Shown: positions 4,821 to 15,251, numbered from the stretch's first letter. The stretch is DNA of 64,000 nucleotides from Candidatus Latescibacterota bacterium (GCA_963791045.1 CAWBQK010000018.1:134405-198404); one strand, 5' to 3'. The notes: a model not told the origin generated them from the sequence alone. Made by a program: numbers and translations.

Positions 4821-7800
4821 TCAGGAACGGGCGCCCAGTGATTTCTTCAAAATCGGGAATGTCGTATTCTCGTGAAAAACCGCGATCCTCTCGAGTTCCT
4901 TGAGGATCTCGGTTTTCTTTTCGCCGGACACACGATAACTCATGTCGACAATCTCCGACCCCTGGATCTCTTCGCCTCCGAGGAACGTGCCGCCCATGAC
5001 GAGCATGTAGTCGGGAAGCGAATCGATCCGGTTGGCCGCCGCCCACATCCTGCACCACGCCTGCGCGGTTGTTTTCTCGTCGTACCCGCCCCCACCGAGA
5101 AGCAGCAGATGGTTGCTGTATTCTCTGATCAGAGTGAGAGCGGTTTCCATACCGTTGTTGGTCAGGCTCAATTGGGCAAGCGGGTCCGCCTTGTGGGTGT
5201 CTGCTCCAATTACGGCGACAACGACGGATGGAGAAAACATCTCGACGGCGGGTGTAACGACACGTTTGAAGATTCGTTCGAAAGCTTCGTCATCCGTGTT
5301 TTCGGGGAGAGGGACGTTCACCGTGTAGCCCTGTCCGATGCCCTCGCCGATTTCGTTCTCGAAACCGGACCACGGGTAGAGTGTTTTGCCTGTTTGATGG
5401 AGCGACACGGTGAGCACCCGGTCGTCGTTGTAATAGGCGTCCTGGACGCCGTTCCCGTGGTGGGCGTCGATATCGATGTAGGCGACCCTGAAACCCTTCG
5501 CGAGAAACATGTCGATGGCGACGATGGCGTCGTTTACATAACAGAAACCCTCGGCATGTGTGCGGCTCGAATGGTGAAAACCACCGAGTGGGTTGAAAAC
5601 AATATTGGCGTTTTCCTTGGTGATTAGATCGACGCCGGTAATCGTCGCGGATGAATAAAGCAGGACGTAATCGAATATGCCTTTGAAGATGGGGCAATCC
5701 TCAACACCGAGATTGAAGTTAATAAACCTGTCCTGCCACTCGCCTGAATTCGCTTGCTCGAGCGCATCGATGAACTCCGGGGCGTGGGATTCGATAAGCC
5801 TCTGTTTTGAAATCATCATCGGCTCTTCGACCCGCATCCACGGTTCGTTCAGGTATCCCTGCTGATTAATAATCTTGAGAGACGTTCGTGCGCGCCCCGG
5901 ATTATACGGGTGCTCATCTCCGTATGAAAAGTCCGCGTAACGTCCCGAGTAAACGACGATGCTGTCCTTTGGTTTTTCAATGTCTCGCGTAGGGAAGCGC
6001 ACGGTAAATACGCACATCCCCGAGTCGTAGGACTTTTCGGATGTCGGCCAGGCTCTGTTGAGCAGCGCGATCGTTGAAGCGTTTTCCGGGATCACGTCGG
6101 AATAGACCCCCGTCAAACCCCTCGCATATGCGATCTTGTTGAGGTAATTGGCGAGAAAAGTCCCGATGCCGTGGCCGCGATAGTCCTCGCGGACGACGAT
6201 GTCGAACTCTCCCATATTGTTCGACGGATTGTAGGTGTACCGCCCCTCGGCGACAATCTCGGGATTCCGCGGCGATCCGACAAGACCGACAATCGCCATG
6301 TCCTGGCTGTAGTCGATCGAGGCGAGCTTTTGGGCGCTTTCGGTCGAGAGGGTTTTTATGGATCCGTGATAACGGAGACGAATTGTCTCCGGTGTCAGCG
6401 CGTAGAACAGCCGCTGCAGGCGGCGCGCATCGTCCGGTTTGATCGCGCGAAAGAAGAGTTCCGTTCCGTCGGGAAAGGTGTGGCTGAATTCATAATGGTG
6501 CGGATACACCCCTCCGCCCTCGGGCGGTAAGACGTGTCGCTCAGTGACATACTTGAGTCTCTTTGCCTCGTCGAGCAGTTGTTGCCGGAATTTTGGATGT
6601 GCAATCGATATCAATGCGATCGCGCGTTCGCGCACGGAACGCCCGTAAAGATTGGCCGATCCGTACTCGGTGACGACGTAGTCGACTTTCGCACGGTTGA
6701 AAGCAACTCCACGGCCGACGCTCGATGCAACAATCCTCGAATGCGCCCCGTCCGGTGTCGTCGAGGGGGTTGCCATTACGGTGAATCCGTTCGTCGAGCA
6801 GTGCGCCCCGTCGATAAAGTCCATACTGCTTGGAAGAGTCCGTTTGAGCGAAACATGCTCGGTGTCCGCCCTGGCCATTCCAGTCAATTCGATCTCCTGA
6901 ACCGAATGAATCGATACCATGTTTTCGTTCTGCGAGATCAGAGAGGGATTGCTCACCACATCGATTGGCAAAAGAGAGATATAGGGGTTGCTCGTCACAT
7001 CCCAGTAGAGTTTCTCCGATCCCATGACCATCGTGGCTACGGTTTTGCCCCTGTGTGTGGTTTTGTGTCGGTTCGTCACCGCGCCGGAATTGATAAGGCG
7101 CATTAGATCGTCGGTGATAATATCAGTGTGAATTCCGAGGTTCTTTCGTGTGTCCAGATACCTCATGGTCGAAGCGCCAATAGTCCCGCCACCAAAATGA
7201 AGTGTCATCCCATCGGTGATCAAGTTGGCGATGTAACGGCCGATGGTAAGAGAGACGGGGTCGAGTGCCGGAGACGGAACCGTGGCGAGCGGAGTATCGC
7301 CGACGACGAAGTAGTCAATTTTATCGGCGGGAATTATTGAATCCCCAAGGGTGGTCGGCATGTTCTTGTTGACCTGGGCGACAACGAGCCGGGCGTTGTC
7401 AACCGCCGCCTGTGTGGCGTCGACCGACACTCCGAGGCTGCACATCCCCAGCGAATCGGGGGGCGATACATGTATGAGTGCGACGTCGATCGGGACCACG
7501 CCGTCCGCGATTGCTTTCGGCAGTTCGCTGACGTTCATCGGGGTATAATCAGTAAGAGTACCTTTTTCGAACGAATCGCCGTGCCGTCCGACATAAAACG
7601 CGTTGTAACGAAAACTTCCCGTGAGCTCAGACCGGGCGAGTTTGGGCTCTTCGTCGGCGGTCGCAAGCTGGATGACTTCGAGGTCGTAGAACTGCCTGGC
7701 CATTTCATCGAGTGTGTCTGTCAAAAGCCGAGGCTCTCCGGCGCCGGATCCGACAAAGATAGTCTGGCCGTTACGAAGATGGGCGAGGGCGTCTTGCGCC

Positions 7801-7847
7801 GTTGCCACTTTGCCGGCAAATCTTTTTTGCCACGATGCGTTTGCCAT
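4821..7847 (-). CDS. Three-domain fusion: acetyl-CoA hydrolase/transferase-like + GNAT acetyltransferase + histone deacetylase family (AcuC-like)
   Basis: One uninterrupted ORF; ATG 7847 follows GGAG. N-terminal CoA-transferase fold (VSPPDSLGMCSLGVSVD, YVVTEYG, RERAIALISIAHPKFR), GNAT (VREDYRGHGIGT), HDAC (GGFHHS, GFCYVND, DIDAHHGNG, GADTHKADPL, GGGGY). Confidence 0.9.
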   Translation of the reverse strand: MANASWQKRFAGKVATAQDALAHLRNGQTIFVGSGAGEPRLLTDTLDEMARQFYDLEVIQLATADEEPKLARSELTGSFRYNAFYVGRHGDSFEKGTLTDYTPMNVSELPKAIADGVVPIDVALIHVSPPDSLGMCSLGVSVDATQAAVDNARLVVAQVNKNMPTTLGDSIIPADKIDYFVVGDTPLATVPSPALDPVSLTIGRYIANLITDGMTLHFGGGTIGASTMRYLDTRKNLGIHTDIITDDLMRLINSGAVTNRHKTTHRGKTVATMVMGSEKLYWDVTSNPYISLLPIDVVSNPSLISQNENMVSIHSVQEIELTGMARADTEHVSLKRTLPSSMDFIDGAHCSTNGFTVMATPSTTPDGAHSRIVASSVGRGVAFNRAKVDYVVTEYGSANLYGRSVRERAIALISIAHPKFRQQLLDEAKRLKYVTERHVLPPEGGGVYPHHYEFSHTFPDGTELFFRAIKPDDARRLQRLFYALTPETIRLRYHGSIKTLSTESAQKLASIDYSQDMAIVGLVGSPRNPEIVAEGRYTYNPSNNMGEFDIVVREDYRGHGIGTFLANYLNKIAYARGLTGVYSDVIPENASTIALLNRAWPTSEKSYDSGMCVFTVRFPTRDIEKPKDSIVVYSGRYADFSYGDEHPYNPGRARTSLKIINQQGYLNEPWMRVEEPMMISKQRLIESHAPEFIDALEQANSGEWQDRFINFNLGVEDCPIFKGIFDYVLLYSSATITGVDLITKENANIVFNPLGGFHHSSRTHAEGFCYVNDAIVAIDMFLAKGFRVAYIDIDAHHGNGVQDAYYNDDRVLTVSLHQTGKTLYPWSGFENEIGEGIGQGYTVNVPLPENTDDEAFERIFKRVVTPAVEMFSPSVVVAVIGADTHKADPLAQLSLTNNGMETALTLIREYSNHLLLLGGGGYDEKTTAQAWCRMWAAANRIDSLPDYMLVMGGTFLGGEEIQGSEIVDMSYRVSGEKKTEILKELERIAVFHENTTFPILKKSLGARS

Positions 7848-8069
7848 TAGATTCGTCTCCGTATTGCCCCGTCTGATGCCACCCGCGCCTATTGATTGGA
7901 TTCGGCATTCGATAATCGGTGTGGGAGTCAAGAGTAGGGGGAAATCGCGTAAACGTCAAGTGGCTATTGAGTTTGACGTGATTTTTGGCTTGGGATGAAA
8001 TGGTTGGTGGAGTACGATGGAATGGCCGCTTGTCGCACAATCCGACAAAACGAACCGGACACGGACATC

Positions 8070-8915
8070 ATGACATTGAGAAAGATGACAGCCGACGACA
8101 TAGAATTTGCCGCTGCAGTGGTTGCGGCGGAGGGGTGGCTTGGCGAGACGCCGGGTGTGTTCGAGGGCTTCGTCGAGCGGGACCCGGACGGCTGCCTGGT
8201 CGCCGCCTGTGATGAGCGTCCCGTTGGCATGTGCATTGCCACCGCGTACGGAGCGTGCGGATTTATCGGTGAACTTATTGTTGAAGAAAAGCTGCGAGGC
8301 CGAGGTTTCGGAAAGCAGCTGTTTGAGGCGGCGTTGGAATATCTCGATTTGTCGGGGGCGGGCGATGTCTATCTGGACGCCGACCCGTCCGCCGTTTCAT
8401 TTTACGAACGAAATGGATTTCGAAAGATTTGCCGTTCGTTGCGGTTTGTGGGCAAGATCGTGCCTCGCAAACATGCGTCTGTCAGACAGGCAACACAAGA
8501 CGACGTGGAAACGATTTTGATTCTCGACAAGAATCGTTTTGGCGCGGACAGATCGTTTTTTCTTAAGCGACGCCTTCGCGTATTTCCGGCGCTGTGTCAT
8601 GTTCTTGTCGTGGATGGCGAGCTCGCCGGATACATTATGGCGCAACCGGGAATCGGCGTGATTTCGGTCGGTCCCTGGCTGGTGCGCGGTGGGGATAAGC
8701 ACGCCGGGACGCTAATCGAGGCGCTGGCCTCAAAGACAAAAGACATTCCGCTGCGTATCGGAGTACTTGAATCCAACCAGAACGCCGTGGAACTGATCCG
8801 GTCGTTCAAAAAGTTTCAGGAGCACGCTCCGTGCTGGCGAATGGTTCGTGGAAATGGAGAAGGCCTTGGTTTCCACGACGATTTGTATGCGATCGGATCG
8901 GCGGCGAAGGGGTAA
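8070..8915 (+). CDS. GNAT family N-acetyltransferase (tandem GNAT fold)
   Basis: Motif A IVEEKLRGRGFGKQL, FYERNGF, followed by a second GNAT-like half. Confidence 0.85.
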   Translation: MTLRKMTADDIEFAAAVVAAEGWLGETPGVFEGFVERDPDGCLVAACDERPVGMCIATAYGACGFIGELIVEEKLRGRGFGKQLFEAALEYLDLSGAGDVYLDADPSAVSFYERNGFRKICRSLRFVGKIVPRKHASVRQATQDDVETILILDKNRFGADRSFFLKRRLRVFPALCHVLVVDGELAGYIMAQPGIGVISVGPWLVRGGDKHAGTLIEALASKTKDIPLRIGVLESNQNAVELIRSFKKFQEHAPCWRMVRGNGEGLGFHDDLYAIGSAAKG

Positions 8916-8990
8916 TTTTGATTTTGATCGCGAAGTATTGTTGTTCTGACGACAATAGATATCCCGCTGTTGCGGAGGAGGAGTCCGGAA

Positions 8991-9824
8991 ATGCCGACAA
9001 ATAGAATGATCGCGCTCGTTCAACAATCCGCCGATGAGGATCGTGAGGCGAACCGGCGGCGTGGACTTGAAGCGGTGAGAACGGCCGCGGGTCGGGGCGC
9101 CAATATTGTTTGTTTTTCCGAGTTGGCCTTCGAGAGGTTCTATCCGCAGGAACAAGCCACGGCCGAAACACTTGCTGTTGCCGAGCCGGTTCCCGGCGAG
9201 ACTACGGAAAGATTTACCGCTTTGGCCGCGGAACTCGGTGTGGTTATCGTGCTCAACCTTTTCGAACGAGATGGAGATTTTACATTCGATACGTCGCCGG
9301 TTATTGATGCGGACGGATCGATTCTCGGCAAGACGCGCATGGTCCACATAACAGATTACGAATGTTTTTATGAAAAAGGATATTACCGCCCGGGAGATCA
9401 CGGCGTGCCGGTATTCGATACGGCGTTTGGCCGGATCGGAGTGGCGATATGTTACGATCGACACTACCCCGAGTACATGCGCGCGTTGGCTTTAAATGGC
9501 GCGGAGATTGTGGTGGTGCCCCAGGCGGGTGCCGTGGGGGAATGGCCTGAAGGACTCTACGAAGCGGAGATGCGTGTCGCCGCGTTTCAAAACGGGTATT
9601 TTGCTGCTCTGTGCAACCGGGTTGGTCCTGAAGCGAAACTCACGTTCGCCGGGGAGTCCTTTATTTGCGATCCCGGCGGCGTTGTTTTTGCGCGTGCCGG
9701 AGAAGGAACCGAAGAAATTCTTTACGGAGAACTCGATCTCGAACGATGCGGCGAATCGCACGCGCGAAAATTGTTTCTGCGTGACAGGCGCCCTGAACTT
9801 TATTCCGAGTGGCTTTCAAAGTAG
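8991..9824 (+). CDS. Carbon-nitrogen hydrolase (nitrilase superfamily, N-carbamoylputrescine amidase-like)
   Basis: CFSELAF, EKGYYRPGD, GVAICYDRHYPE, CNRVG; GGAGGAG upstream of the ATG. Confidence 0.88.
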   Translation: MPTNRMIALVQQSADEDREANRRRGLEAVRTAAGRGANIVCFSELAFERFYPQEQATAETLAVAEPVPGETTERFTALAAELGVVIVLNLFERDGDFTFDTSPVIDADGSILGKTRMVHITDYECFYEKGYYRPGDHGVPVFDTAFGRIGVAICYDRHYPEYMRALALNGAEIVVVPQAGAVGEWPEGLYEAEMRVAAFQNGYFAALCNRVGPEAKLTFAGESFICDPGGVVFARAGEGTEEILYGELDLERCGESHARKLFLRDRRPELYSEWLSK

Positions 9825-9833
9825 ACGACGAAC

Positions 9834-11333
9834 TTGATAACACTTCTCTGTCGCAGCCCAATTAGAGCTTGCCGCGCGAGCGTCCTCGTGTTGCTCCTGG
9901 TGTTCCTGTCGGTCTCCGTCGCCGTTCCCGCCGCTCTTTGCGTCGACAGGGAGTGTTTTATGATCCTTGTGGGGAAGGACGCTACGACGGACGGCTCGGT
10001 CCTGCTGGCTCACAACAACGACCTCTCGGGCACCGAGGTTTCACTCGTGGAGAAGCACCCGCGCCGCGAACACGCCCTCGGTGAAACCGTGGTATTTCCA
10101 ACAGGACTCGAAATACCCGAATCACCCATGACGTTTGAATGGCTCGTCCTCAGAATCGCAGTGGGTTTTGACGAGGGTGATGCCGTTGCTATCAATGAAC
10201 ACCAGGTTGCGATCGCCGGCGGTGTCGCGCTGGGCCGTGACCGTCTCAAACGTGCGGAGAAGGCTGATCCTCTTGTTACGGGTGGGTTGACGGGGGGTGT
10301 GCGCTATATCGCGCTCCAGCGTTCCAAAACGGCGCGTGAGTGCGTGGAAATGGTGGGTCGCTGGTACACCCGGTATGGCGTGACGTATCCGAGCGGCTTT
10401 GGCGTCGCGGATCCTGATGAAATCTGGTACATCGAGTCGGGAGGAGGGCGCAGTTGGGCTGCGGTTCGAATTCCGGACGACTGTTACTGGATCCAGGCCA
10501 ACGGGTATCGTATCGGTGTTATCGATCCATCGGACACACTGAATGTGATTACGTCGCCGGGTCTTCTCGATTTTTGCAAGACGCAACGTTTGTGGAATCC
10601 CGAAGAGGGACCGTTCAGTTTCAAAACGGCTTTCGGCGGAAAATACAACAGCACGCCGGGAAAGGTCAGATACAACACCCGCCGTGTCTGGAGGGGTATG
10701 GACATTTTGAGCCCCTCGCTTGATCTCGACCCTGATGCGGATGAGTTTCCGATGACGGCCCGCCCCGATCTCCCCGTCTCCATAGAGACGCTTGCTGGTA
10801 TTCTAAGGGATCATTATGAGGGTACGCCCTTCGACGGTTATCCCGCCGACGGACATGGTTCAGGAGAGCGTTTGATATGTTCTCCCACGTGTGTTCATAC
10901 CGATGTGATCCAACTGCGTCGAAGTCTGCCGGCGGACATCGGTGCTGTGATGTGGGTGGGGTTGAGCCGGCCCGACGCGGCCATTTACGTTCCGTTCTAT
11001 TTCGGGATCGATGAAGTGCCGGAACGGTACGGGTGTGCGGATGAGGCGTGTGGTTCCGCGTTCAAAAGCTTTGAACGTCTCTCCAACCTGGTGCTTGCAA
11101 ATTACTCGTTAGGCAGTTCGAAAGTAATTCGAGGACGCGAGCATCTGGAAGCCGGCGCGTTCTCGCTACAGAGTACAATTGACGAATCCGCGTCCGAATT
11201 GTACGAGAAGGATCCCTCTCTTGCCCGGGCGTTTCTTTCAACTTATGTCGGGGGGCTTTGCGCTGAATCGCTGGACCTGGCGGCCCGCCTGATTCGAGAA
11301 CTGGAGACTGTATCCGGCGCGAGTCATGAATGA
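9834..11333 (+). CDS. Secreted peptidase C69 family (dipeptidase/secernin-like Ntn hydrolase)
   Basis: Hydrophobic signal region, then CFMILVGKDATTDGSVLLAHNND, INEHQVAI, ADPDEIWYIE, YNTRRVWRG, YVPFY. Confidence 0.82.
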   Translation: MITLLCRSPIRACRASVLVLLLVFLSVSVAVPAALCVDRECFMILVGKDATTDGSVLLAHNNDLSGTEVSLVEKHPRREHALGETVVFPTGLEIPESPMTFEWLVLRIAVGFDEGDAVAINEHQVAIAGGVALGRDRLKRAEKADPLVTGGLTGGVRYIALQRSKTARECVEMVGRWYTRYGVTYPSGFGVADPDEIWYIESGGGRSWAAVRIPDDCYWIQANGYRIGVIDPSDTLNVITSPGLLDFCKTQRLWNPEEGPFSFKTAFGGKYNSTPGKVRYNTRRVWRGMDILSPSLDLDPDADEFPMTARPDLPVSIETLAGILRDHYEGTPFDGYPADGHGSGERLICSPTCVHTDVIQLRRSLPADIGAVMWVGLSRPDAAIYVPFYFGIDEVPERYGCADEACGSAFKSFERLSNLVLANYSLGSSKVIRGREHLEAGAFSLQSTIDESASELYEKDPSLARAFLSTYVGGLCAESLDLAARLIRELETVSGASHE

Positions 11334-13104: not shown

Positions 13105-13872
13105 ATGAGTAAAACAAAGAAAACAATTCTGGGAGTATTTGCCCACCCGGACGACGAATCGATGGGGCCCGGGGGGACTTTGGCGAAGTATGCGGCTGAG
13201 GGCCACACGGTAAAATTCATTTCGGCAACCGACGGCGGCGCCGGTCGTCTTTACGAGGAACGCCCCGTGGATAACACGGCGCTCCGGGACGCACGCAGGC
13301 AAGAAACTATTGCCGCCGCCGGAATTCTCGGTGTCGAATGTCTCGGATTTCTGGGGTGGGAAGACGGAAAGCTCGCTGGGTTGGACATACTTGATGTCGA
13401 GCTGCGGATCGCGGAATTGATCCGGCGGGAAAAACCGGATGTTGTTATCACGTTCCACGCGTCAGGGATCTCTTATCATCCCGACCACAGGGTCATCGCG
13501 CTCGCCCTGATGGGCGCGTTTTGTGGAGCGGGGCACGAGGGCTGGTACGCGGATCCGGTAGTCGAAGGCGTTCCTCCGCACGCCGCATCGAAACTCTACT
13601 TTTTCACGCTTGTTCGGTCACAGATAGACAGGGTCGAATGGCCCCGGGAAGTTTACGCCTCACCCGACAATGAAGTGACGACCGCTATAGATACGAGCGG
13701 GACCGCGGAGGTCAGATGGCGGGCGATACAGGCGCACAAGACGCAGAGGAACGGACCGCCGTTCGAGGCGCTGTACAGCGCGGGCATCTTTGACCAGGAA
13801 TCATTTGTCAGGATTTTCCCGACCCCTTGTCCCGGCGACGCGTTGGAAGACGATCTTTTGGCCGGGCTCTGA
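13105..13872 (+). CDS. PIG-L/LmbE family N-acetyl deacetylase (MshB/BshB-like)
   Basis: AHPDDES and HPDH metal-binding motifs, AHKTQ. Confidence 0.88.
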   Translation: MSKTKKTILGVFAHPDDESMGPGGTLAKYAAEGHTVKFISATDGGAGRLYEERPVDNTALRDARRQETIAAAGILGVECLGFLGWEDGKLAGLDILDVELRIAELIRREKPDVVITFHASGISYHPDHRVIALALMGAFCGAGHEGWYADPVVEGVPPHAASKLYFFTLVRSQIDRVEWPREVYASPDNEVTTAIDTSGTAEVRWRAIQAHKTQRNGPPFEALYSAGIFDQESFVRIFPTPCPGDALEDDLLAGL

Positions 13873-13899: not shown

Positions 13900-15030
13900 C
13901 TACCGATTCTCGAGAGTTGATAACGTGTAGACGGCAAACGAGGCGAGCCAGTGCTCGCCTTCATAGTTGCCGCTCGTAATGTGCGCGAGCGCATCGGCGG
14001 CATGACGTTCAGCTGAGGCGGCAAGGGTGTTTCTTGCCGGGCTTTCGGCCGGCAACGCGGACACGATCCCGGCCATACACCAGGCGCGGCTGAGGTTGAG
14101 ACCATCGAGATGCACGATCTTGGGATCGGTCCGATCCGCGACGGTTGCCGGAGTGATTATCTCTTCGGGGATTGTGGGCAAGAATCCATCGAACCATTCG
14201 GCGAATTCCGCGGGACCGAGCACGCGGCGCATCAAGTCGGCCTCCATCAAGGCCGGAGAGAAAAAGTCTTCTCCGCCCGGCTCCCAGTTCGCCGGATAAT
14301 CTGTGTCAGACGCGAAATATTTTTTGCCGCGCTCGACAAGAACCGTTTCGAGCTCCTCGTTCCCGGTTGTTCGAGCGAAATCCAATGCGAACGCGATTCC
14401 GAACGCTGTATTTGGGTGGACGCCGGTCCGGATCGGATACGTTTGTCTCGGTAAAAAATCGATGTATCGCGATGCCAGCAGCTGGATGAGTGGGTCGAGA
14501 CTCGCATACCATTGTTTTCCATCCGGGTCATCCCACGTATAAAGTTCCTCGCCGAGTTTTAGCAACCATGCCCAACCGTACGTGCGTTCGAACGATTTGC
14601 GATTTGGTTCTTCGAAGTACGCTACTTCCTTCTCAATGTTTTCCGGCGTGAGATTGTGATTCAGGGCCGCCCTGATCGGTGCGTCCGTCTCGATGTCGGG
14701 GAAAAGCTTGAGAACTCGAACGAGCATCCAGTGTCCGTGGACGGCCGAATGCCAGTCAAAACACCCGTAAAAAGCGGGATGAAGCACCTGGGGGTTCTGG
14801 ACTTCGTCTTCGTCGTTCAATACGTGCGACGGTTTGTTTGGATATTCGCGTTGAACACAACCGAGCGCGAGCTCCGAAAGTCCGGCGGCAACTTCGGATG
14901 TCAGCGCCGGCGTGCCTGAGATATGGGAGGTTGGATCGGGCTCCGCGTTGGTGCCCGTTTCAACAAGCACACCGAGAACAAAACCGAGCGCCGTAACTGC
15001 TACTACGAGTGCGATGAATATCTTGCCCAT
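13900..15030 (-). CDS. DUF2891 family protein, secreted
   Basis: HPAFYGCFDWHSAVHGHW, FERTYGWAW, HLDGLNLSRAW, YEGEHWLASFAVY. Confidence 0.82.
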   Translation of the reverse strand: MGKIFIALVVAVTALGFVLGVLVETGTNAEPDPTSHISGTPALTSEVAAGLSELALGCVQREYPNKPSHVLNDEDEVQNPQVLHPAFYGCFDWHSAVHGHWMLVRVLKLFPDIETDAPIRAALNHNLTPENIEKEVAYFEEPNRKSFERTYGWAWLLKLGEELYTWDDPDGKQWYASLDPLIQLLASRYIDFLPRQTYPIRTGVHPNTAFGIAFALDFARTTGNEELETVLVERGKKYFASDTDYPANWEPGGEDFFSPALMEADLMRRVLGPAEFAEWFDGFLPTIPEEIITPATVADRTDPKIVHLDGLNLSRAWCMAGIVSALPAESPARNTLAASAERHAADALAHITSGNYEGEHWLASFAVYTLSTLENR

Positions 15031-15251
15031 GGGCCCTCCCCGATTGATGAAGTGTTGATGTTCGGGTTTATTTAACCATTCCTGTCTGGATATCGATAAC
15101 CAAAATTTCAAGGTTCGTCTGCAAACCTTTATCCCATGGATATCGGGGTCTGGGGGACGGTGCAAACCTGCGCTATCCGGCCTATACTATGGGTGATGGG
15201 AGAGGTTGGGGAGGGGCTCACCGAAGCACGAGTCCAGGGAAAGGAGAGGTT

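Follow-up and report, generated by a model that had tools for sequence, protein, structure and literature searches.

Can one polypeptide both write and erase lysine acetylation? Reversible lysine acetylation in bacteria has so far been described with separate writers (GNATs of the Pat and AcuA types) and erasers (sirtuins, AcuC). The question is raised by a gene at positions 4821..7847, minus strand, of a 64,000-nucleotide stretch from a Candidatus Latescibacterota bacterium (GCA_963791045.1 CAWBQK010000018.1:134405-198404; hereafter the window), whose product joins a CoA-transferase-like domain, a GNAT domain and an HDAC domain. A first-pass annotation, made from the sequence, had read the gene as a one-protein acetylation switch. 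The conserved fusion, the Pat-type GNAT and the intact HDAC residues on which that interpretation was built all stand, whereas its transferase module is found to be catalytically degenerate. To the amended reading, a self-contained protein-lysine acetylation writer/eraser with a non-catalytic acyl-CoA-binding N-terminal domain, we give about even weight.

One open reading frame for three domains

The minus-strand frame is open over 4821-7931. From the ATG at 7847 it encodes 1008 residues with zero internal stops, as first described. This ATG is the likely start, since a GGAG motif lies 9 nt upstream and homologs of 1008 residues align from residue 1. Pfam places AcetylCoA_hydro at residues 13-190 (3.9e-25), AcetylCoA_hyd_C at 276-428 (1e-42), Acetyltransf_1 at 525-596 (6.9e-9) and Hist_deacetyl at 646-937 (1.2e-77) of the 1008-residue protein, spans that agree with the domain boundaries of the first-pass annotation. 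The features of the gene, with the evidence for each, are as follows.

4821..7847 (-): whole gene, 1008 codons plus stop at 4821-4823; full-length homologs
7857..7860 (-): Shine-Dalgarno-like GGAG, 9 nt before the ATG at 7847; read from the sequence
6543..7835 (-): 4-hydroxybutyrate-CoA-transferase-like domain (residues ~5-435), predicted non-catalytic; Pfam, PDB 3eh7, Foldseek
7122..7124 (-): Asp242 codon, at the site of the class I catalytic Glu (RipA Glu249); structure-sequence alignments
6816..6836 (-): L-P-S-S-M-D-F (residues 338-344) in place of the canonical G-x-G-G-Q-x-D-F; alignments
5988..6509 (-): Y-P-H-H-Y-E linker and Pat-type GNAT (residues 447-620); Pfam, PDB alignments
6207..6209 (-): Glu547 codon, opposite catalytic Glu809 of E. 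coli PatZ; alignment
6162..6179 (-): acetyl-CoA P-loop R-G-H-G-I-G (residues 557-562), opposite PatZ G822-G824; alignment
5958..5987 (-): GNAT-HDAC junction (residues 621-630), without flexible linker; alignment, bridging contigs
5028..5963 (-): class-I/AcuC-like Zn-dependent deacetylase (residues 629-940); Pfam, HDAC2 E 6e-65
4824..5027 (-): C-terminal extension, residues 941-1008, with a long helix predicted at its end (975-1007); structure model

The joining of GNAT and HDAC is real: neither a stop nor a frameshift, the events that would have made the fusion spurious, is present at the junction here or in homologs. In the 112-row family alignment, from which the conservation counts for GNAT, HDAC and junction are taken, each residue of P626-K627-D628-S629-I630 is kept in 101-111 of the rows. 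Contigs of two sequencing runs span the junction without indels, which supplies the read-level check that the first-pass annotation had called for. A 295-nt contig of run X1, a run that may be the source sample itself, crosses it gap-free with three differences, and from run X2 a contig of 711 nt does so at unchanged length; no run contained more than 0.16 of the sampled words, and no RNA run is listed. An indel artefact is excluded because of the homologs, the single-frame loci described below, the invariant junction and the bridging contigs.

The three domains and their catalytic residues

Comparison with the PDB bears out the suspected likeness of the GNAT domain to Pat/PatZ: all nine of its sequence matches are protein lysine acetyltransferases, among them PatZ (residues 710-879, 4.7e-15), S. 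lividans PatA, Sulfolobus Pat and mycobacterial Pat. PatZ residues R754, E809, G822-G824, N851 and K860 fall, in an ungapped alignment, opposite R492, E547, G560-G562, N589 and R598. E809 is the key catalytic residue of PatZ and G822-G824 its P-loop (PMC12184503). Position 547 (SlPatA counterpart E123) is Glu in 99 and Asp in 13 of the 112 rows, and R492, the counterpart of the gating-motif Arg, is invariant in a 26-row alignment. The acetyl-CoA-binding motif A first noted as REDYRGHGIG occupies residues 553-562; within it, G560 is present in 111/112 rows and position 562 is Gly or Ala in 112/112. The protein scores 52.2 bits against the NCBIfam mycobacterial Pat model, below the cut-off of 460, and its regulatory domain is of no published Pat type, as the N-terminal domain is CoA-transferase-like.

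The nearest PDB sequences to the HDAC domain are HDAC1/2/3/8 and HDLP. All the residues listed in the first-pass annotation are found (the HH dyad 758-759, D792/D794/H796, D883 and GGGGY 918-922), and the zinc and catalytic positions H758, H759, D792, D794, H796, D883 and Y922, aligned with HDAC2, are each kept in at least 111 of 112 rows. Cluster 2 of the deacylases (class I/AcuC) is marked by XGGLHH and (G/A)GGY motifs in place of RPP and XGGY, and by an Asp like Asp101 of HDAC8 (PMC11532494, Graf et al. 2024). The window protein has L-G-G-F-H-H at 754-759 and G-G-G-G-Y at 918-922, and its D717 is equivalent to HDAC8 Asp101 (Asp in 75 and Glu in 37 of the 112 rows). Taken together, each GNAT and HDAC catalytic residue is kept in 99 or more of the 112 homologs, and from this residue pattern both domains are probably active on protein lysines. 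An AlphaFold model built with 26 homologs (mean pLDDT 82, pTM 0.80) suggests a defined arrangement of the domains.

The N-terminal domain differs from its relatives where catalysis is concerned. Its nearest solved structures are 4-hydroxybutyrate CoA-transferases (3eh7, E 4e-94; Foldseek TM 0.92, target-normalised), and Pfam, PDB 3eh7 and Foldseek alike give the two-lobed alpha/beta fold of class I CoA-transferases. The catalytic glutamate is missing: position 242 is Asp in 101/113 rows and Glu in 7/113 (transferase-domain counts refer to the 113 proteins of 980-1110 residues among the query and its 120 listed relatives). In all five printed PDB alignments the enzyme sequence H-(T/S)-E lies opposite H-T-D242, and the enzyme sequence GGQ(V/L/M)D(F/Y) opposite P-S-S-M-D-F. 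The catalytic Glu249 of RipA lies 22 residues past the G-V227-G loop (PMC3180442), and the same spacing holds for D242. Independently of spacing, D242 is placed on RipA residue 249 because, of all RipA chains in the PDB, the query is matched best by the E249D mutant and worst by the E249A mutant. The mapping rests on RipA Glu249; the catalytic residue of AbfT, which we take to be Glu238 and for which a literature search found no confirmation, is left unused.

The second catalytic motif is also lost. GXGGQXDF(XXGA) is conserved in these CoA-transferases (PMC8360832), and the external oxyanion-hole glycine, which we take to lie within GXGGQ, is strictly conserved across the superfamily (PMC4876117). 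In its place the window protein has L-P-S-S-M-D-F-I-D-G-A, with P339 in 97/113 rows. The G-x-G gating loop is changed in most family members, the H-T-D-x-x-T-D-D block around Asp242 is near-invariant over the 113 rows, and the mean identity of the domain across the family is 61%. The NCBIfam model for butyryl-CoA:acetate CoA-transferase (TIGR03948) gives 181.5 bits, below its cut-off of 674.8. HTE and GGQ are intact in 15 relatives, namely 11 one- or two-domain proteins from related genomes and four stand-alone ones. Because the catalytic Glu and the GXGGQ motif are both lost, the N-terminal domain has most likely given up catalysis and serves to bind acyl-CoA or to regulate; by its residues it is probably a sensor or scaffold and not an enzyme.

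The family, its independent counterparts and its genomic setting

The protein is not unique to the window. A word-indexed protein search scored 7999 candidates and found 466 relatives; Hist_deacetyl and AcetylCoA_hyd_C occur together in all 120 listed relatives (56-100% identity), and 113 of the 121 proteins (query included) are 980-1110 residues long. More than 100 full-length homologs, 56-77% identical, come from bacterial and archaeal metagenome-assembled genomes (MAGs), so that the taxonomic check proposed in the first-pass annotation returns a conserved family with the three domains together. Among 80 loci examined in species-representative genomes, 30 carry the three parts in one open reading frame. 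The others comprise one gene in four pieces (L089), a contig-end fragment (L056), 47 stand-alone HDAC genes and one split locus (L099), where the HDAC gene and a CoA-transferase-GNAT gene lie 3 kb apart. Fused loci are labelled Myxococcota/'Deltaproteobacteria', Planctomycetota, Nitrospirales, Fibrobacterota, Aminicenantes and, in seven cases, Thermoplasmata or other archaeal MAGs; all come from MAGs, and some of these automated labels are perhaps unreliable. Of 151 genomes sampled in the window's phylum, eight have a match at E <= 1e-200; for the high-quality genomes among them the count is five of 117. A set of 41 relatives has full-length copies in six genomes, the window's own included. 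Clustering at 50% reduces the family to one representative (P0065). The family is compact and patchily distributed, and it has probably spread horizontally.

Two copies are interrupted. In a Myxococcales MAG (L089 2124-5161) the fusion gene is split over four open reading frames, and in a genome of the window's class the match (G151:C1024:111164-114163) contains one in-frame TGA; decay or sequencing error is possible in either.

An exhaustive profile-free search of 1.84 billion representatives sets the family in a wider context. Besides the family's own, 149 clusters are listed: 83 have CoA-transferase plus GNAT, 42 CoA-transferase only and 22 HDAC only ('only' being judged by BLAST at 1e-5, so that divergent GNATs may be hidden), together with one more three-domain protein (P0134) and one GNAT-HDAC protein (P0209). 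The first of these classes bears out the two-domain CoA-transferase-GNAT fusions mentioned in the first-pass annotation as existing. Among 71 two-domain representatives with a near-complete transferase domain, the catalytic position is Glu in 39, Asp in 13 and another residue in 19, and the stand-alone transferase representatives keep the Glu in 25 of 38. That only 39/71 two-domain proteins retain it fits relaxed selection on catalysis after the GNAT fusion. In a transferase-domain tree (maximum likelihood, quick search, 122 rows) the 12 sampled family members form one clade (SH-aLRT 100). This clade is nested in a larger set, with support 96, whose other members are nine two-domain clusters; some of these, several in number, are already degenerate.

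P0134 is placed elsewhere in the tree, in a different supported set of eight (99). It belongs to a second CoA-transferase-GNAT-HDAC family (P0134, P0271-P0351) of 79 Verrucomicrobiota proteins of 900-970 residues, annotated only as 'GNAT family N-acetyltransferase'; its hosts include the cultured Rubritalea spongiae, R. tangerina, R. marina and R. squalenifaciens, as well as Coraliomargarita and Haloferula. On this placement, the same three-domain architecture arose independently a second time, in Verrucomicrobiota. Domain order is that of the window protein and the transferase catalytic Glu is absent from both, but the Verrucomicrobiota proteins have a long Lys-rich GNAT-HDAC linker, a class-II-like HDAC (RPPGHHA and EGGY motifs, nearest HDAC6) and cultured hosts. 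Their transferase domain has Gly at the nucleophile position in 79/79 and G-(A/S) for GG in 79/79, the GNAT Glu is invariant (79/79), and the HDAC residues are kept in 78-79 of the 79 except for the second His of the D-x-H-H motif. A third family (P0209, P0390-P0443; ~588 residues, Syntrophales/Smithella) joins a small GNAT, in which no resemblance to the Pat type could be detected, to a class-I-like HDAC 37% identical to that of the window. Judged from these alignments, writer-eraser fusion has recurred, and in both three-domain families it is accompanied by loss of the transferase nucleophile.

A split form may show how the fusion began. In one genome (L009, G038:C11) an HDAC gene at 5294-6466(-) overlaps by 28 nt an upstream CoA-transferase-GNAT gene at 6439-8304(-), whose transferase is canonical, with catalytic Glu and GGQ intact; the pair is plausibly a pre-fusion state. 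A complex prediction of residues 20-621 of this CoA-transferase-GNAT protein with the HDAC returned no answer (score 0.00), which speaks neither for nor against binding. Related architectures among P0125, P0128, P0148 and P0214 combine a 4Fe-4S ferredoxin-like N-terminus with CoA-transferase and GNAT, a response-regulator receiver with HDAC, and a receiver with CoA-transferase.

The window itself is ordinary chromosome (ppk, hrcA, dnaJ, mutS2, dnaG, rpoD), and its DnaG shares 71% identity with the DnaG of a Candidatus Latescibacterota chromosome. The genes near the fusion gene are these.

7995-8915 (+): two-domain GNAT (Acetyltransf_1 and Acetyltransf_18), divergent from the fusion gene
8970-9824 (+): carbon-nitrogen hydrolase, divergent from the fusion gene
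9834-11333 (+): C69 peptidase, divergent from the fusion gene
13105-13872 (+): PIG-L family de-N-acetylase, few kb from the fusion gene
13900-15165 (-): DUF2891 protein, few kb from the fusion gene

The GNAT, carbon-nitrogen hydrolase, C69 peptidase and GT1 glycosyltransferase neighbours are not conserved beyond close relatives of the window. Across loci, the recurrent neighbours are enzymes of acetyl-CoA metabolism. In L023 and L029 (18-nt gap), and likewise in L025 (259 nt), the fusion gene is directly preceded on its own strand by a gene for AMP-forming acetyl-CoA synthetase (acs), each of the three carrying the PKTRSGKIMRR acetylation-site motif, and genes for ATP-citrate lyase subunits lie near the fusion gene in L027, L043 and L048. 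In two of these loci, both from Myxococcota, where the fusion gene follows acs, a two-domain CoA-transferase-GNAT paralog stands immediately downstream of it in convergent orientation (L023 10117-12042(-), L029 10556-12763(-)). The window's genome (G000) has an acs-like gene at C3:69017-70871 (L100/L101) that matches the AcsA model in two frames (2-215 and 209-628), maybe through frameshift or assembly error; its C-terminal part keeps PKTRSGK, and an HDAC homolog lies ~12 kb away at C3:56817-57623.

Proposed function, alternatives and known systems

We propose that the Pat-type GNAT would pass acetyl or short acyl groups from acyl-CoA to lysines of target proteins, and that the class-I/AcuC-like zinc deacetylase, joined to it by a rigid conserved junction, would strip such groups. 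The N-terminal domain, descended from a 4-hydroxybutyrate-type CoA-transferase, would now be an acyl-CoA/CoA-binding regulatory and oligomerisation module. It probably dimerises like its catalytic relatives (CoA-transferase homologs are dimers, PMC3180442) and, to judge from the regulatory domain of PatZ, which binds acetyl-CoA, probably biases the enzyme to writing or erasing. AMP-forming acyl-CoA synthetases and other acetyl-CoA-linked enzymes would be the likely targets. We thus infer ligand binding by the N-terminal domain, protein-lysine substrates and reciprocal regulation, the last of these, a switching like that of GlnE or SpoT, being conjecture. A wider proposal, possible but on balance doubtful, is that prokaryotes have one-polypeptide lysine acylation writer-erasers, evolved at least twice in three-domain form and a third time in a simpler one; in the three-domain form, a pseudoenzyme CoA-transferase would sense acyl-CoA/CoA (or acetate) and reciprocally gate GNAT and deacetylase on shared targets such as acetyl-CoA synthetase.

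Several observations weigh against the writer/eraser reading. Regulation must be assumed, because an always-on writer and eraser would merely hydrolyse acetyl-CoA. The gene has no conserved neighbourhood, the largest shared neighbour family occurring in 4 of 31 loci; adjacency to acs is limited to 3 of the 31 and absent in the window. The fusion protein is not the sole candidate writer or eraser of its genome, because that genome also encodes a sirtuin, a further HDAC homolog and, within an 896-residue open frame, a match to GNAT. Promiscuity towards the acyl group is possible among cluster-2 deacylases (PMC11532494). Finally, some residual catalysis by the N-terminal domain may persist, because some class I CoA-transferases become acyl-CoA hydrolases when their nucleophile is Asp (PMC12400318).

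Among the alternatives, the one that survives best, though still unlikely, keeps both domains active and dispenses with a reciprocal switch: the HDAC would reset autoacetylation in cis, or would edit or swap acyl marks. Autoacetylation governs the oligomeric state of PatZ/YfiQ (PMC6456759), and the rigid conserved junction would suit action in cis. The foot pocket of cluster-2 deacylases is extended, and these enzymes take several kinds of acyl group (PMC11532494). The family, however, has no known autoacetylation site, adjacency to acs points to an external substrate, and stand-alone AcuC works on AcsA (PMC11532494).

Rather improbable is an N-terminal domain that is still catalytic, as an acyl-CoA hydrolase by way of the Glu-to-Asp exchange or as an atypical CoA-transferase, so that the three domains together would tune acetyl-CoA, CoA and acetate, for example as an overflow valve from acetyl-CoA to acetate. 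In some class I CoA-transferases the Glu-to-Asp exchange abolishes transfer while thioester hydrolysis is kept or gained (PMC12400318, citing Mack and Buckel 1997), and purifying selection (61% mean identity), the frequency of Asp242 and the near-invariant block around it count in its favour. Asp is nevertheless missing in 12/113 members, and the GXGGQ motif with its presumed oxyanion-hole glycine (PMC4876117) is gone as well. The invariant Gly of the Verrucomicrobiota family means that a carboxylate is dispensable for the role of the domain in that architecture.

More improbable still is a small-molecule enzyme, serving metabolism or detoxification, in which an amine (polyamine, amino acid or another) would be acetylated by the GNAT and deacetylated by the HDAC-like domain. 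The only PDB sequence relatives of the GNAT are protein acetyltransferases, and the HDAC has class-I/AcuC signatures that include the peptide-binding Asp, so the polyamine alternative is less likely than the protein-lysine reading. Both folds do include small-molecule enzymes, such as polyamine deacetylases (PMC11532494), and the fusion gene has a second GNAT, a carbon-nitrogen hydrolase and a C69 peptidase encoded close to it in the window, but these neighbours are not conserved across loci.

A spurious fusion, produced by misassembly or a frameshift, or a pseudogene in decay, has next to no probability and is rejected: the window's genome is a MAG (81% complete, 5.8% contamination) and disrupted copies exist in L089 and G151, but more than 100 independent full-length homologs from many sources, the 30 single-frame genome loci, the near-invariant junction with its indel-free bridging contigs and the conserved catalytic residues stand against it.

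The writer/eraser reading, and the degenerate transferase in particular, can be set against what is known. The first-pass annotation knew of no characterised example, and our literature search likewise found no description of a CoA-transferase-GNAT or GNAT-HDAC fusion; supplements lay outside the search, and the lists of PMC11532494 or the supporting information of PMC12184503 might mention one. Bacterial lysine acetyltransferases are classed in types I-V, with regulatory domains of the NDP-forming acyl-CoA synthetase-like, cAMP-, ACT- or NADP-binding types (PMC6456759, PMC12184503), a scheme repeated in PMC11254643; the consulted excerpts of these three sources do not mention a CoA-transferase-type domain or a deacetylase fusion, and the main text of the deacylase survey PMC11532494 does not mention a GNAT fusion. 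Database entries of the family carry automatic names ('GNAT family N-acetyltransferase', 'AcuC-like/acyl-CoA hydrolase/GNAT'). As far as searched, the parts are known families, and the combination, the pseudo-transferase module and its recurrence are new. Within a large unclassified CoA-transferase-GNAT group (83/149 listed clusters), two independent families have gained a deacetylase and lost CoA-transferase catalysis; here an enzyme domain has clearly been put to another use, probably that of sensing a metabolite. The wider proposal, if true, would add a class of bacterial and archaeal lysine acetyltransferases beyond the type I-V scheme. It is testable at the bench now, because cultured Rubritalea species carry the sister architecture.

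PatZ of E. coli and Pat of Salmonella (class I-alpha, type I) are the closest known relatives in design. Their C-terminal GNAT is homologous: catalytic Glu and P-loop are shared, the K860 position is likewise basic, and PatZ has a lead-in Y-P-H-Q-x-E as counterpart of Y-P-H-H-Y-E. In both designs the N-terminal part is a large domain that stems from an enzyme handling acyl-CoA; it is of the NDP-forming acyl-CoA synthetase type in PatZ but of the class I CoA-transferase fold in the window protein. The PatZ domain binds acetyl-CoA allosterically and aids binding of Acs (PMC12184503), and the N-terminal domain described here most likely parallels, by analogy, this inactive synthetase-like regulatory domain. 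Erasure of PatZ marks falls to a separate sirtuin, CobB, whereas the window protein has a deacetylase fused at its C-terminus.

The fold of the N-terminal domain is that of AbfT and RipA (PDB 3eh7, 2oas, 3gk7, 3qli; 29-38% identity over ~430 residues). It retains their motifs SRIV, VTEYG and RERA...IAHP, but the catalytic Glu is exchanged for Asp, the G-x-G loop is altered in most members and GXGGQXDF is replaced. In B. subtilis, acetyl-CoA synthetase is the target of AcuA, a GNAT writer, and of AcuC, a class-I-like zinc eraser, both of them linked genetically to acs (PMC11532494, PMC13121692). AcuC shares the cluster-2 motifs with the window HDAC domain; AcuA, AcuB and AcuC are, however, separate proteins, AcuA being a small stand-alone GNAT, while the window protein is one chain, and the sensing done by AcuB would here fall to the CoA-transferase-like domain.

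Forward and reverse modification on one polypeptide, with a sensor that decides between them, is familiar from the GlnE adenylyltransferase, GlnD, SpoT and AceK, in which reciprocal control has been demonstrated. Their chemistry and folds are other than those of the window protein, for which reciprocal control is a hypothesis. Were it to hold, the window protein would be the first one-protein acetylation switch and the acetylation counterpart of GlnE, SpoT or AceK.

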